Translations under genes and position numbers: made by a program
Shown here: positions 1-3,432 of the stretch, in pieces
Layout of the letters: the number at the start of each line of letters is the position of its first letter
Numbering within the stretch: the first letter of the stretch is position 1
Sequence record: KU159289.1
Length of the DNA stretch: 3,432 bases
Reading direction: 5' to 3' (one strand)
Source: Escherichia phage DT571/2
Notes under the pieces: generated by a model
What the model saw: only the letters and a program-made list of their open reading frames with translations
What the model was told of the DNA's origin: nothing
Databases searched by the model: none

Positions 1-120
1 ATGGCACTTAAAACTAAAATTATTGTACAGCAGATTCTGAACATAGATGACACTACAACTACTGCTAGTAAGTATCCTAAATATACAGTAGTTTTAGGTA
101 ATTCTATTAGTTCTATTACT
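1..120 (+). other. N-terminal module (aa 1-40), putative virion attachment region of the fibre
   Basis: Non-repetitive, hydrophobic-rich segment MALKTKIIVQQILNIDDTTTTASKYPKYTVVLGNSISSIT that precedes the low-complexity shaft. In modular tail fibres the N-terminus is the conserved part that docks to the tail. The assignment is by position and analogy only. Confidence 0.4.
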
Positions 121-3100
121 GCTGGTGAATTAACTGCTGCTGTAGAGGCCTCTGCAGGATCCGCTGCTGCTGCTAGAGGTTCTGAAATAGCAGCTAAGGA
201 CTCTGAAAATAACGCTAAAGATTCAGAGATTCAGGCGGGTATTCATGCTGGTGCTTCCGAAGCTTCAGCAACTCAATCTGCTGCCTCTGCTACTGAGTCA
301 GAAAGACAGGCGGGTTTAGCCCAAAGCAGTGCAGATAATTCTGCAGCTTCTGCGCAAGAATCAGAGGGATTTAGAGACTCTGCAGAATTGGCAGCGCAGA
401 ATGCTGAACAAAGTCGTTTACTAGCTGAACAAGCTAAAACAGCTGCGCAACAAGCTCAAATAGCCGCAGAAGCTGCTAAGACTGGTGCTGAAACAGCTAA
501 AGATGGAGCTGATGCTGCTGCTACCACTGCTGGCGAACATGCTGCTGCTGCAAGGCAATCAGAACTAAACGCTAAGATTTCTGAAACTAATGCTGCTGGT
601 TCTGCTACTGAAGCCGGTGATAAAGCTATCGATGCTACTACTGAGGCAGATCGTGCTAAAGCTGAGGCAGATCGTGCAACTCAGATTGTTGATAGTAAAC
701 TTGATAAAGTAGATATTTCTGGTTTTATCAAAGTTTATAAGACTAAAGCAGAAGCTGATGCCGATGTTGTAAACCGTGTGCTAGACGAAAAGGTTCTAGT
801 CTGGAACCAAACTAACTCAAAATTTGGGTGGTACAAAGTAGCTGGAACTGCTGAGACTCCAGTATTAGAGTTAGTAGAAACAGAGCAAAAGTTAGTTTCT
901 GTTAATAACGTTCGTGCAGATGATGGGGGTAACGTACAGATCACCCTTCCTGGTGGTAACCCCTCTTTATGGCTGGGTGAAGTTACTTGGTTCCCTTATG
1001 ATAAAGATTCAGGTGTTGGCTACCCTGGTGTTCTTCCTGCTGATGGTCGTGAAGTTCTTCGTGCAGACTATCCAGATACTTGGGAGGCTATTGAGGCTGG
1101 CTTAATTCCTTCTGTACCAGAAGCTGAATGGCAAGCCGGTGCGTCTCTTTACTTCTCTACGGGTGATGGCTCTACAACCTTCCGTCTACCAGATATGATG
1201 CAAGGACAGGCATTCCGTGCACCAACTAAAGGCGAAGAAGATGCTGGCGTTATTAAAGATCAGATTCCTTATGTTGTGACAGTTAATGGTATCTCTCCAG
1301 ATGATATAACTGGTAACGTTGAAATTGATACCTCACTACAAGGTACTGTTAGTATTAATCAAGGCGGTACTGGTGCAACAACTAAAGAAGACGCCCGTAT
1401 AGCCCTCGAGTTATATAGTACTACGGAGGTTGATTCTGCTTTAGCAGATAAGGCTGATATTGCTACCACGTATACTAAGATGGAGGTTGATTCTGCTTTA
1501 GCAGATAAGGCTGATATTGCTACCACGTATACTAAGATGGAGGTTGATTCTGCTTTAGCAGATAAGGCTGATATTGCTACCACGTATACTAAGATGGAGG
1601 TTGATTCTGCTTTAGCAGACGCTAAAACTCAGTCAGATACTGATTACTTATTAAAAGCTAATAACCTTTCGGATTTGGCAGACCGTGCTGCCGCATGGCT
1701 TAACGTGCGACCCGTTGGTTCAACGCCGCTGGCTGGTGATCCTGTTGGCGACTACGATGCTGTTACTAAGCGTTGGGTAGAGAATAAGATTAACACCGGT
1801 ACAGTAGGGCCAACAATGAATGGTGTCATGAACTATGGGGTAGGTGACTTTCACCTGCGGGATAGTCGCGCATACATTCAGCCGTACGAGGTGGTGAGTG
1901 ATGGTCAGTTGTTGAATCGTGCTGACTGGCCCGAACTCTGGGCGTATGCGCAAATGCTATCGCCAATTAGTGACGCTACCTGGCTGGCTAACCCAAATCA
2001 GCGCGGCAAGTATTCTACTGGTGACGGCACAACGACCTTCCGAGTGCCAGACCGTAATGGTGTTCAGCCTGGGTCAATATTCGGCTTGTTCTGCCGGGGG
2101 GACGGCGGGCAAAGTGGCAACGATGGGTATATCTACGAATCAGGAGCACCTAACATCACAGGCCGCGTCGAATTACACGGCGGCGGGTCCGCAAGTATTA
2201 TCAACGGTGAAAGTGGCGCGTTCCATGGGTCTGGTGGCGCGGATTCGCAATATCGGACGCCAAGCAACCTAACTGTTAGTAACGGCGCGGTCTCCTACGG
2301 CATCATTAACCTGGACGCCTCGAGGGTCAGCGCGATCTATGGTCGGACCGTAACGGAGTTGCGTCCAAATAACTTCATGGGTGTGTGGGTTATTCGAGCG
2401 TCAGGCGGGTTCGTGGCGGCGAATACGTCTTGGAGTGTGATCAATGGTGATGCGACACGTCCAGCTGACGGCACAATTGCTCAAGGTGGTAACATATTCT
2501 CATTGTACAAGATTAGTGGCGCCAATGAGGCTGAAGCTAGTTTCTGTGCCCGTGCCGATATCGGCGGTAACTATTCTGCTCGTATTTCCGTAACGAACAG
2601 TACCACACAAAGAAGCGCGAATCTGGATTTTGACGAAACAGGTAAACTAACTATACCGAATAGTATAGTTGTGAACTCGGTGAACTCCGATTTTGACGGT
2701 GTATGTTGGGCGGATTCCGCCGATAAAGTACGCTGGCGTATGGGGATTAACGACGCTTCGGGCAATTTTAAGTTGCAATCATATGACGCGTCGGGCGCGT
2801 ACCGAGATACCGTCGTGGAGATCCCCGGAGCGGGAACAGGCGGAGTAGTGTGGGCCCGTGATATAACCATTCGCCCGACTACCGACGGTCCGGTGAAGTC
2901 TTTCGTTCTACACAACGCAAAAGATTCAGTCCCGGCTGGTAATTTCCGCACGATGTGGGATTCGGTTAATATCAATAGTAACCAGATCTATAAATATTTT
3001 GAGAAGGGAAACGGCACTGGCATTACAATCAACTGGCCTTCATCTGGTGGTGTTCTTGCCTTGCAAGGCACATCGGGGCGGGACTTTAAGAAAGATATTG

Positions 3101-3432
3101 TCAATGCAGACGTTACAGAAGCGGTTGCACGTATTGAACAAATGCGCATGGTGAACTACGTGTATAAGGACGATGTGCAGGAGCGCGTCCGCTTCGGCAT
3201 AATTGCCGAGGAGGCTGAAGCGATTGCACCTCAATACATCAAACATCGAGAAGAGACGTACGATGTGGAGGTGGACCCAGAGACTAACGCTATTATCGGT
3301 GGTAAGACCCGCGACAGGCCGTCGGTGGATGTAAACCCGATCGTTATGGATTTGATGGGTTGTGTGCAGTATCTCAATAAGCAAATCGAGGATTTGAAGG
3401 CAGAGATAGCCGCGCTGAAGGCAGCGAAATAA
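1..3432 (+). CDS. Phage long (L-shaped-like) tail fibre protein, 1,143 aa, with C-terminal intramolecular chaperone / autoproteolysis domain
   Basis: Single ORF spanning the whole window, ATG at 1-3 and TAA at 3430-3432, no in-frame stops. The translation shows an Ala/Ser/Glu-rich shaft, two tail-collar-like motifs (STGDGSTTFRLPD, STGDGTTTFRVPD), the L-S-D-L-A-D-R-A-A-A-W-L-N linker motif common in tail fibres, and a C-terminal chaperone-like domain ending in a heptad helix (QIEDLKAEIAALKAAK). The N-terminus (KYPKYTVVLGNSISSIT) resembles, from memory, that of phage T5 L-shaped tail fibre pb1; this is not verifiable here, so no gene symbol is assigned. The true start cannot be confirmed because there is no upstream sequence. 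Confidence 0.9.
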   Translation: MALKTKIIVQQILNIDDTTTTASKYPKYTVVLGNSISSITAGELTAAVEASAGSAAAARGSEIAAKDSENNAKDSEIQAGIHAGASEASATQSAASATESERQAGLAQSSADNSAASAQESEGFRDSAELAAQNAEQSRLLAEQAKTAAQQAQIAAEAAKTGAETAKDGADAAATTAGEHAAAARQSELNAKISETNAAGSATEAGDKAIDATTEADRAKAEADRATQIVDSKLDKVDISGFIKVYKTKAEADADVVNRVLDEKVLVWNQTNSKFGWYKVAGTAETPVLELVETEQKLVSVNNVRADDGGNVQITLPGGNPSLWLGEVTWFPYDKDSGVGYPGVLPADGREVLRADYPDTWEAIEAGLIPSVPEAEWQAGASLYFSTGDGSTTFRLPDMMQGQAFRAPTKGEEDAGVIKDQIPYVVTVNGISPDDITGNVEIDTSLQGTVSINQGGTGATTKEDARIALELYSTTEVDSALADKADIATTYTKMEVDSALADKADIATTYTKMEVDSALADKADIATTYTKMEVDSALADAKTQSDTDYLLKANNLSDLADRAAAWLNVRPVGSTPLAGDPVGDYDAVTKRWVENKINTGTVGPTMNGVMNYGVGDFHLRDSRAYIQPYEVVSDGQLLNRADWPELWAYAQMLSPISDATWLANPNQRGKYSTGDGTTTFRVPDRNGVQPGSIFGLFCRGDGGQSGNDGYIYESGAPNITGRVELHGGGSASIINGESGAFHGSGGADSQYRTPSNLTVSNGAVSYGIINLDASRVSAIYGRTVTELRPNNFMGVWVIRASGGFVAANTSWSVINGDATRPADGTIAQGGNIFSLYKISGANEAEASFCARADIGGNYSARISVTNSTTQRSANLDFDETGKLTIPNSIVVNSVNSDFDGVCWADSADKVRWRMGINDASGNFKLQSYDASGAYRDTVVEIPGAGTGGVVWARDITIRPTTDGPVKSFVLHNAKDSVPAGNFRTMWDSVNINSNQIYKYFEKGNGTGITINWPSSGGVLALQGTSGRDFKKDIVNADVTEAVARIEQMRMVNYVYKDDVQERVRFGIIAEEAEAIAPQYIKHREETYDVEVDPETNAIIGGKTRDRPSVDVNPIVMDLMGCVQYLNKQIEDLKAEIAALKAAK
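121..684 (+). other. Ala/Ser/Glu/Thr/Gln-rich low-complexity quasi-periodic shaft region (aa 41-228)
   Basis: Strong compositional bias visible in the translation (e.g. SAASATESERQAGLAQSSADNSAASAQESE, AEQAKTAAQQAQIAAEAAKTGAETAKDGADAAATTAGEHAAAA). It contains 21-nt (7-aa) periodic sub-repeats, e.g. gctaaggactctgaa at 193-207 vs gctaaagattcagag at 214-228, and the 16-nt exact direct repeat ctgaggcagatcgtgc at 641-656 and 662-677. Alanine is encoded almost entirely by GCT. Confidence 0.7.
964..1224 (+). other. Tail-collar-like domain 1 (aa ~322-408)
   Basis: The segment GVLPADGREVLRADYPDTWEAIEAG...YFSTGDGSTTFRLPDMMQGQAF fits the phage tail collar pattern as I recall it (c-d-G-x-x-L-x-x-x-x-Y-P-x-L-f-x-x-i-G ... 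G-d-G-x-t-t-F-x-L-P-D-l-r-G). Boundaries are approximate. Confidence 0.55.
1426..1619 (+). repeat. In-frame tandem direct repeat, 57-bp unit x 3 perfect copies + 23-bp partial fourth copy, encoding the 19-aa unit EVDSALADKADIATTYTKM
   Basis: Identical 57-nt units gaggttgattctgctttagcagataaggctgatattgctaccacgtatactaagatg at 1426-1482, 1483-1539 and 1540-1596, then a partial copy gaggttgattctgctttagcaga at 1597-1619. The sequence just upstream (YSTT, nt 1414-1425) looks like a degenerate edge of an older copy. Confidence 0.95.
1813..2070 (+). other. Tail-collar-like domain 2 (aa ~605-690)
   Basis: VVSDGQLLNRADWPELWAYAQ...KYSTGDGTTTFRVPDRNGVQPG repeats the same pattern as domain 1, but in the GC-rich codon style. 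Boundaries are approximate. Confidence 0.55.
2071..3075 (+). other. Gly/Ser/Asn-rich distal module, putative receptor-binding (host-range) domain (aa ~691-1025)
   Basis: Gly-rich beta-type composition (GDGGQSGNDGYIYESGAPNITGRVELHGGGSASIINGESGAFHGSGG ...) located immediately upstream of the predicted chaperone cleavage site. That position is where the distal receptor-binding domain sits in chaperone-dependent fibres. I recognise no catalytic motif. Confidence 0.45.
3076..3429 (+). other. C-terminal intramolecular chaperone / autoproteolytic domain (peptidase S74-like; aa 1026-1143), predicted to be released after cleavage following Ser1025
   Basis: Ser1025 (tcg, 3073-3075) and Lys1030 (aag, 3088-3090) have the S-x4-K spacing of the Ser/Lys dyad of endosialidase-type chaperone domains. 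They are followed by DIVNADVTEAVARIEQMRMVNYVYKDD, an acidic/hydrophobic core and a terminal heptad helix LNKQIEDLKAEIAALKAAK. Recognised from memory of the family, not from an HMM search. Confidence 0.65.

Follow-up and report, generated by a model that had tools for sequence, protein, structure and literature searches.

The question raised by this locus is why a single tail fibre gene changes abruptly in synonymous composition near its middle, and whether that change marks a recent joining of two genes or an older boundary between modules. The window analysed here, i.e., the whole stretch of 3,432 nucleotides, is one open reading frame (nt 1-3432) of 1143 amino acids and a stop codon, and it holds no other long ORF. 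By exact look-up the protein is AMM43564.1 (UniRef100_A0A3S5WLY1), annotated as 'fused tail fiber protein [Escherichia phage DT571/2]'. The phage concerned, DT571/2-ABF, carries a spontaneous LtfA-LtfB fusion that was selected in the laboratory (locus KU159289; Golomidova 2016, PMC4728585); it was isolated from a DT571/2 ltfB-opal stock and growth on the O87-type host HS3-104 was reported (PMC4728585). The published account gives 1143 aa, a deletion of 71916-74004 and an additional copy of a 19-aa repeat (PMC4728585), all of which agree with the window, and the window protein does not differ from the fused LtfA-B of DT571/2-ABF. The exact protein match together with the match to the parental DNA therefore identifies the window with the published mutant, and the gene has been known since 2016, together with its phenotype and its origin by fusion. 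A nucleotide search of the phage collection returned no record covering 80% or more of the window, and all of its sequence is traceable to wild-type ltfA and ltfB.

1 to 3432, + strand: fused ltfA-ltfB ORF, L-shaped lateral tail fibre of DT571/2-ABF (exact protein match, PMC4728585 section 3.8)
824, + strand: A to T (Y275F), sole difference from wild-type DT571/2 ltfA within the ltfA-derived part

The substitution Y275F is absent from the text of PMC4728585.

A preliminary description of this DNA had noted a jump in GC between two adjacent 60-nt lines, and the jump is as large as described (0.333 at nt 1621-1680 and 0.633 at nt 1681-1740); the GC ranges given for the two sides also hold, at 0.29-0.50 upstream and 0.42-0.58 downstream in 120-nt windows. 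When GC3 is followed along the gene the step is clear, from 0.231 over codons 1-554 to 0.531 over codons 555-1143, with a change-point log-likelihood gain of 55.4 against a mean of 2.6 and a maximum of 11.8 in 1000 permutations. It falls at the conserved motif in which it had been placed (nt 1666-1707 read LSDLADRAAAWLNV), and no further significant change point was found within either half (nt 759, p ~0.08; nt 3141, p ~0.37).

1644 to 1746, + strand: 2-log-likelihood support interval for the GC3 step, whose maximum-likelihood position is nt 1662

The accompanying change in the choice of Ala, Gly and Arg codons was likewise recovered. Upstream and downstream counts are 61 and 15 for GCT but 6 and 19 for GCG among Ala codons (p=3e-6), 0 and 20 for Arg CGC+CGG+CGA, and 9 and 35 for Gly GGC+GGG; only the string quoted to illustrate the downstream usage needs correction, as it has one surplus g and nt 2091-2110 actually read ctgccggggggacggcgggc. 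Seven of the eight codon families tested shift significantly and in the same direction (Val, Ser, Leu and Thr each at p<0.002), and Pro codons follow the trend just short of significance (p=0.057). GC1 (0.586 upstream, 0.557 downstream) and GC2 (0.479, 0.467) are flat. Because of these flat positions and the shift in seven of eight families, the step is purely synonymous. The two halves do differ in the protein they encode, a repetitive Ala/Glu/Thr-rich shaft on one side and globular domains on the other, and it could be argued that amino-acid content or codon selection, i.e., an Ala-rich shaft followed by a Gly-rich globular head, produced the step irrespective of ancestry. This is very unlikely and was rejected on the unaltered GC1 and GC2 across the boundary, on the one-way shift of the synonymous families with Pro trending alike, and on collar modules that are ~87-90% identical in protein and yet differ in GC3 according to genome (L6jm 0.32, ltfA 0.39, ltfB 0.52, Envy 0.61). 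As near-identical collar proteins differ in this way, composition tracks genome and history rather than protein.

The position of the laboratory junction can be mapped from the parental genes. Of 79 informative sites, the first 19 (nt 1717-1827) agree with ltfA and the remaining 60 with ltfB, with a single clean switch between the final ltfA-type site at nt 1827 and the earliest ltfB-type site at nt 1839. Both ends of the published deletion (71916-74004 in KM979355) map to window nt 1828, with 2088 nt lost in frame, so that the crossover interval, which was obtained independently, contains the published end point. By the nucleotide coordinates of PMC4728585 the two parts of the fused protein meet at aa 609/610; the paper's amino-acid coordinates for the fusion (LtfA 1-663/LtfB 288-767) conflict with these. 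In the respective parts there is one mismatch to ltfA and none to ltfB of the parental phage.

1828 to 1838, + strand: crossover block ATGAACTATGG, 11 nt identical in ltfA and ltfB (informative sites, published deletion coordinates)
1663 to 1827, + strand: ltfA-derived start of the distal module, GC3 0.44 (identical to DT571/2 ltfA)
1839 to 3432, + strand: ltfB-derived collar, receptor-binding region and C-terminal chaperone, GC3 0.54 (0 mismatches to DT571/2 ltfB over 1594 nt)

This provenance also bears on whether the window could be a natural single-gene fibre, ancestral to ltfA and ltfB before their duplication. Single-gene lateral fibres do occur in T5, BF23 and other phages, but a protein exactly equal to the deposited mutant protein, parental matches this close with one clean switch, and an isolation history on record (PMC4728585) leave such an origin practically no probability, and the sequence provenance rules it out.

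The step and the junction are not the same. The crossover at nt 1828-1838 lies ~170 nt downstream of the step and outside its support interval, and the ltfA-derived nt 1663-1827 are already raised in GC3 relative to nt 1-1662 (0.44 vs. 0.23, Fisher p=0.0016). At nt 1828 itself no significant compositional signal was detected (nt 1663-1827 vs. 1828-3429, p=0.16). Wild-type ltfA steps from GC3 0.23 to 0.43 at the homologous position (gene nt 1605), the step has its homologous place in DT57C ltfA and DT530 too, and in ltfB GC3 goes from 0.26 to 0.53 at gene nt 588, exactly where the ltfA-ltfB homology starts. The GC3 step is thus an older module boundary, inherited from wild-type ltfA and present in both parental genes. 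That it should instead be a scar of the ltfA-ltfB fusion, step and junction being identical, is hardly credible: the fusion did import a GC3-richer distal part (ltfB nt 700-2301 at 0.54 vs. 0.43 in the deleted distal part of ltfA), and the change-point gain is indeed higher in the window (55) than in wild-type ltfA (25), but the unfused parental genes and their relatives carry the step without this fusion, which rules the idea out. The step is sharper in the window because the fusion swapped the partly AT-shifted distal part of ltfA for that of ltfB.

The fusion arose when the neighbouring genes ltfA and ltfB lost 2088 nt in frame between their paralogous collar regions, giving one polypeptide. 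The ltfA-derived and ltfB-derived modules are ~75% identical to each other. The wild-type DT57C and DT571/2 fibre is branched and made of two proteins, with LtfB docked on LtfA, whereas the window encodes one polypeptide that lacks the distal part of ltfA (gene nt 1771-3120) and the N-terminal docking part of ltfB (gene nt 1-699). A similar spontaneous in-frame deletion is found in the sister phage DT530(1), whose LtfAB (KU236381, AMB48779.1) also joins ltfA and ltfB via their paralogous distal regions. There the crossover lies in another homology patch, equivalent to window nt 2385-2391, the extra 19-aa repeat is missing and the ltfA part is DT57C-type (95.8% identity); the DT530(1) fibre was reported to be nearly inactive (PMC4728585). 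Within the window the repeat VDSALADKADIATTYTKME is complete at aa 477-495, 496-514 and 515-533 and partial from aa 534, and alignment to ltfA of DT571/2, DT57C and DT530 reveals a 57-nt insertion, i.e., one repeat copy, which was gained in the course of the fusion.

The remaining features of the proximal half and of the C-terminus are as follows.

1 to 1272, + strand: proximal part conserved in T5-like phages (tail attachment, shaft), GC3 ~0.22 (342 phage records)
667 to 1455, + strand: phiEco32 gp14-type fibre homology, aa 223-485 (BLASTP to Kuravirus O18-011 gp44, 42% identity, E=3e-53)
1363 to 1413, + strand: first junction-type motif GGTGATTKEDARIALEL, aa 455-471 (read from the translation)
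1425 to 1619, + strand: 57-nt (19-aa) tandem repeat, 3.4 copies, 100% identity (Tandem Repeats Finder)
3076 to 3237, + strand: Peptidase_S74 intramolecular chaperone domain, aa 1026-1079 (Pfam PF13884, 40.5 bits vs. a cut-off of 22, E=3.4e-10)

The 342 records matching nt 1-1272, at the ltf locus, are mostly T5-like, at 85-90% identity, and most of the matches stop at nt 1272-1275; GC3 over nt 1-1413 is 0.223. The parental gene adjoins ltfC and stfB. T5 pb1 (Ltf) resembles the window in that its locus lies beside ltfC, its N-terminal attachment region is homologous and it ends in a Peptidase_S74 chaperone; according to the literature the window protein otherwise shares no homology with T5 Ltf. 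For T5-like Ltf proteins the literature describes a chaperone released by autoproteolysis and the binding of O-antigen, and in the DT57C cryo-EM paper LtfA was resolved in its N-terminal part only, short of the motif region. The phiEco32 gp14-type region has been proposed as the docking site of LtfB in the branched wild-type fibre (PMC4728585 section 3.2.2). For the tail collar, PF07484 scores 24.9 bits over the whole protein against a cut-off of 24; two regions scanned separately reach 21.1 and 16.7 bits, below the cut-off, and each aligns only to profile positions 38-54. No Pfam domain was found in the receptor-binding segment, aa 821-1020.

That the fibre is chimeric, as the preliminary description had proposed, is borne out: the proximal part is matched by T5-like phages, more than 300 of which share nt 1-1272 only, and the distal half finds its nearest relatives outside the DT57C group in Dhillonvirus fibres, with homology starting at the motif.

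1663 to 1707, + strand: motif NLSDLADRAAAWLNV, aa 555-569, start of the collar module common to phage lineages (homology comparison)

ltfA, TrudiGerster, L6jm ORF132 and Envy all have this motif, preceded by unrelated sequence. More generally, the module from the N-L-S-D-L...AWLNVRP motif onward is common to Dhillonvirus, Wifcevirus and other T5-like fibres with unrelated upstream parts, and Kuravirus homology to it starts ~25 residues beyond the motif. The points at which homology between lineages breaks off are concentrated in aa 530-580 (~530, ~550, ~560-565 or ~580 by lineage) and, since their positions vary with lineage, the motif marks a zone and not a point. The conserved motif may have served as a recombination site.

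In the Dhillonvirus fibres (Envy gp19, phage bob) homology to the window sets in at the NLxxL...AWLNVRP motif and takes in the collar, receptor-binding region and chaperone. Protein identity in the collar block is ~93%, and ~81% of nucleotides are identical over 64% of the distal half; the receptor-binding segment in the centre has diverged and the N-terminal half is unrelated. Unlike in the window, GC3 in the Envy fibre gene is uniform at 0.64 without a step, and the locus has a GC of 0.544 (54% GC genome) and gene GC3 values of 0.54-0.67. The backbone genes of the T5-like phage (exo, dut, ltfC and stfB) have GC3 values of 0.21-0.35, to be compared with 0.53 in the distal half of the window, and this difference in GC3 with flat GC1 and GC2 is what horizontal acquisition predicts. 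So is the presence of a homologue in a lineage of matching composition, together with an incongruence: the ltfB collar block is nearer to Envy (80% nt, 93% aa) than to the neighbouring ltfA (74% nt, 89% aa). In L6jm and TrudiGerster the shared module has a GC3 close to that of the backbone, which makes the strong step a specific property of the DT57C/DT571/2 lineage. Synonymous differences from Envy are skewed to A/T in the T5-like copies, to a graded extent (L6jm 72:15, ltfA 42:11, ltfB-derived part 23:18).

Taken together, the window is very probably the DT571/2-ABF fusion with an inherited step where the T5-like shaft meets a distal cassette from a GC-richer, Dhillonvirus-like source. According to this reading a T5-like proximal shaft at backbone composition (GC3 ~0.23) would have been joined at nt 1662 to a cassette of collar, receptor-binding region and chaperone that circulates among several coliphage lineages and that, in the DT57C/DT571/2 lineage, still retains the synonymous-site composition of its source. 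We infer a transfer into the T5-like genome from pairwise identities and the asymmetry of synonymous substitutions, in an unrooted comparison. The opposite, a module that belongs to T5-like phages by origin and reached Dhillonvirus and others by export, with the high GC3 of ltfB otherwise caused, is improbable. Collar-module copies are numerous in T5-like phages and the pairwise distances are near star-like (~0.72-0.74 nt identity), so that the tree is poorly resolved; against export, a GC3 of 0.53 is far from equilibrium among such backbone genes, the Envy copy fits its own genome perfectly, and ltfB specifically is nearer to Envy than to its neighbour ltfA. The closeness of the ltfB cassette to Dhillonvirus in both sequence and composition argues for separate acquisitions by ltfA and ltfB and not for an in-genome duplication.

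With regard to the source, the best relatives outside the T5-like phages are only ~80% identical in nucleotides. No donor above ~81% nucleotide identity was found among phage records and 5,426 complete E. coli genomes, and a megablast of the distal half (nt 1663-3432) against the latter returned nothing, i.e., no prophage donor at ~85% identity or above. The distal GC3 (0.53) is below that of Envy (0.64), and the module could in truth stem from some other lineage with ~50% GC. The preliminary description had derived the whole distal half from one higher-GC lineage; the GC-richer deep history stands, but the half is not one import, because the ORF is a laboratory fusion of ltfA (nt 1663-1827) and ltfB (nt 1839-3432). 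The chimera reading was hence largely right on deep history, but the recent junction escaped it, as did the fact that the distal half stems from two genes.

The GGTG form of the first junction-type motif directly precedes the shared collar block in ltfB and in FEC19. It is tempting to speculate, although only tentatively, that the paired motifs NLSDLxDRxxAWLNVRP and GGTGxxxxxxxW/R, just upstream of the highly conserved collar block, constitute a shared recombination adapter by which at least four coliphage lineages (Tequintavirus/Epseptimavirus, Dhillonvirus, Wifcevirus and Kuravirus) exchange entire host-recognition cassettes.

In T5-like phages and small siphophages it is well established that lateral tail fibres are mosaics, conserved at the 5' end and exchangeable in their distal cassettes (PMC4728585, PMC8594841), and little is added here beyond the known case except two modest points. 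First, the compositional step is a module boundary inherited in both parents and separate from the laboratory junction. Second, the distal cassette of ltfB is nearer to Dhillonvirus fibres than to its neighbour ltfA, in sequence as well as in composition. Were the adapter reading true, the graded GC3 of the T5-like copies (0.32, 0.39, 0.52) could act as a clock ordering successive imports. For engineering the host range of tail fibres, the conserved junction region could offer a practical place to splice.

The 3432-nt stretch is the already published fusion gene of DT571/2-ABF, a laboratory-selected mutant of DT571/2. Its protein is AMM43564.1, 'fused tail fiber protein [Escherichia phage DT571/2]' (exact-sequence look-up). 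Among phage records megablast returned no full-length match to the window; it returned two partial matches, with the window split over two genes of the same phages. DT571/2 ltfA matches nt 1–2061 and ltfB matches nt 1717–3432. These genes, whose products form the branched lateral tail fibre, are neighbours downstream of ltfC in both DT571/2 and DT57C, and a record from the sister phage DT530 is annotated as 'tail fiber protein AB; fusion of ltfa and ltfb'. The source of DT571/2-ABF was a DT571/2 ltfB-opal stock, out of which it was selected for its ability to grow on E. coli HS3-104; positions 71916–74004 are deleted so that LtfA is fused to LtfB, and the 19-aa repeat gains one additional copy (Golomidova et al., 2016, PMC4728585, section 3.8). 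The features of the window are as follows.

Whole 3432-nt window, + strand: complete ORF of 1143 codons, the sole ORF making up the window
nt 628–681: short tandem repeat (21-nt unit, 2.5 copies, 78% match) encoding EADRAKAEADRAT in the Ala-rich shaft
nt 1363–1413 (aa 455–471): second junction-type motif, GGTG-type, GGTGATTKEDARIALEL, just ahead of the 19-aa repeats
nt 1425–1619: tandem repeat (57-nt period, 3.4 copies, 100% identical), one unit above wild type
nt 1828–1838 (aa 609–613): crossover block ATGAACTATGG, 11 nt identical in ltfA and ltfB
aa 1026–1079, C-terminal: Peptidase_S74 intramolecular chaperone (Pfam, 40.5 bits, cut-off 22)

The tail-collar signal of the whole protein is borderline (Pfam, 24.9 bits, cut-off 24), and the two collar-like regions alone score below threshold.

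Aligned base by base, the window equals DT571/2 ltfA up to nt 1827, bar one substitution (nt 824) and one additional 57-nt repeat unit, and from nt 1839 onwards it equals ltfB without a single mismatch over 1594 nt. In the paralogous region 79 sites distinguish ltfA from ltfB; the leading 19 carry the ltfA base and the other 60 the ltfB base, and this single switch therefore places the crossover inside the 11-nt block. The published record coordinates map to nt 1828 from either side. The 2016 paper states the fusion as LtfA residues 1–663 plus LtfB 288–767 (PMC4728585), but its own nucleotide coordinates, 71916–74004, together with the sequence, put the junction at fused-protein aa 609/610, about LtfB residue 234; both versions total 1143 aa. 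Recombination on just 11 nt of identity, between sequences that are ~77% identical, is noteworthy. Longer perfect ltfA/ltfB blocks lie nearby, one of 26 nt (1771–1796) and three of 14 nt (1750–1763, 1921–1934, and 2044–2057). The recombinant that came through may owe its recovery to selection for a working fibre. The sole substitution relative to wild-type DT571/2 ltfA changes codon 275 from TAT to TTT (Y275F), within the phiEco32 gp14-like region (aa 223–485) that is the proposed LtfB dock. The 2016 paper (PMC4728585), searched as text, does not mention Y275F; the substitution may be a further, compensatory mutation, or mere strain or sequencing variation.

A composition step had been described from the sequence at the L-S-D-L stretch, and it is confirmed by GC counts, GC3 change point and codon families. 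The hand-counted GC was exact on recount (0.333 for nt 1621–1680, 0.633 for nt 1681–1740), and nt 1666–1707 do translate as LSDLADRAAAWLNV. GC3 rises from 0.231 in codons 1–554 to 0.531 in codons 555–1143, with the maximum-likelihood change point at nt 1662 (2-log-likelihood support interval nt 1644–1746) and a likelihood gain of 55.4 against a permutation maximum of 11.8 (1000 permutations). No second significant GC3 change point was found inside either half. As GC1 (0.586 upstream, 0.557 downstream) and GC2 (0.479, 0.467) are flat across it, the step is purely synonymous. The reported change in codon usage also holds, as seven of the eight families tested (Ala, Gly, Arg, Thr, Val, Ser, Leu) move significantly to G/C-ending codons and Pro shows the same trend (p = 0.057).

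The step is not the fusion junction, since the support interval does not reach nt 1828 and the unfused parental genes have the step too. Between step and junction, the ltfA-derived nt 1663–1827 have a GC3 of 0.44, which differs from upstream (0.23, p = 0.0016) and not from downstream (0.54, p = 0.16). In unfused DT571/2 ltfA the step is at gene nt 1605, i.e., window nt 1662 (GC3 0.23 before, 0.43 after), a position shared by the steps of DT57C ltfA and DT530; in ltfB it is at gene nt 588 (0.26 before, 0.53 after), precisely at the start of ltfA-ltfB nucleotide homology. The fusion merely sharpened an existing contrast (likelihood gain from 25 to 55), because the distal part of ltfA (GC3 0.43) was swapped for that of ltfB (0.54).

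The backbone genes around the locus (exo, dut, ltfC, and stfB) have a GC3 of only 0.21–0.35, and the distal module is therefore compositionally foreign. Beyond the DT57C group its best nucleotide matches are lateral fibre genes of Dhillonvirus phages (Envy, Sloth, bob, and JLBYU37; ~81% identity, 64% of query). The Envy locus has 54.4% GC and its genes a GC3 of 0.54–0.67; the Envy fibre gene has no significant GC3 step, being uniform at 0.64. Homology to Envy starts at Envy's own copy of the motif, NLAGLTDKPQAWLNVRP, with unrelated sequence upstream. In the collar block ltfB shares 80% nt and 93% aa identity with Envy but just 74% nt and 89% aa with ltfA, its neighbour in the genome, and is thus nearer to Envy; ltfA is about equally distant from all other sequences compared, which argues for separate acquisitions of the two modules, as judged from these identities, over a recent tandem duplication. 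Where the T5-like copies differ synonymously from Envy, the bias is to A/T and graded (72:15 in L6jm ORF132, 42:11 in ltfA, 23:18 in the ltfB-derived collar). Collar-block GC3 follows as 0.32 in L6jm, 0.39 in ltfA, 0.52 in ltfB and 0.61 in Envy, with proteins still ~87–93% identical, so the same module sits at near-backbone composition in other T5-like phages. TrudiGerster has a weak step only and the L6jm module is near backbone composition; the strong step is a trait of this lineage's alleles. We infer a direction of transfer in which the module would have been imported from a GC-richer source and then drifted to the resident composition. The searches, which took in 5,426 E. coli genomes, turned up no close donor. 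The receptor-binding and chaperone end (nt 2692–3362) is 84–87% identical to fibres of Oekolampad, ADB-2, Sodalis phage SO-1, and SECphi18, small siphophages that form a different set from the best collar matches (Envy, bob), and the distal half is thus itself mosaic.

The preliminary description also expected homologous exchange at the short conserved motif. Exchange near this stretch is compatible with the comparative pattern, because homology starts depend on lineage and the sequences upstream of the collar module have no mutual relation, but it would map to a zone of ~50 residues and not to a single site. The module occurs in 437 phage records, including T5-like, Dhillonvirus, Wifcevirus, and Kuravirus phages (tblastn, query aa 531–720), with homology starting at aa ~530 in L6jm ORF132, ~550 in Envy, ~560–565 in FEC19 and ltfB, and ~580 in Kuravirus gp41. 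In Salmonella phage L6jm (L005, 4468–6198) it is a separate 576-aa protein, ORF132, homologous to the window from its N-terminus, ~25 residues upstream of its NNLSDI motif; among T5-like phages the same boundary region can thus be either where a protein begins or an internal junction. NLSDLxDRxxAWLNVRP is present in ltfA, Envy, and L6jm, and ltfB and Wifcevirus FEC19 have GGTGx-xxxxxxW..(V/I)RP at that place, directly before the collar block. These may be two connector motifs that can replace each other. What more than 300 T5-like phages share with the window is nt 1–1272 alone (85–90% identity); the matches stop abruptly at nt 1272–1275, which marks a further mosaic boundary within the proximal half, without a GC3 change.

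The LtfAB fusion of DT530(1) arose as that of the window did. It differs in lacking the additional 19-aa repeat copy and in its crossover (nt 2340–2346 of the DT530(1) locus L002, window nt 2385–2391), which lies in a second ltfA/ltfB homology patch ~550 nt downstream of the window's; the resulting fibre is reported to be nearly inactive (PMC4728585). In the DT57C cryo-EM study the N-terminus alone of LtfA was resolved. Reading the gene as a chimera whose distal half came from a higher-GC lineage captured the deep mosaic history and the GC-richer relative, but missed the documented recent fusion and that the distal half derives from two genes. The BASEL collection paper (PMC8594841) describes conserved 5' ends with variable distal cassettes, as well as one-protein and two-protein fibre architectures, in T5-like phages and in small siphophages.
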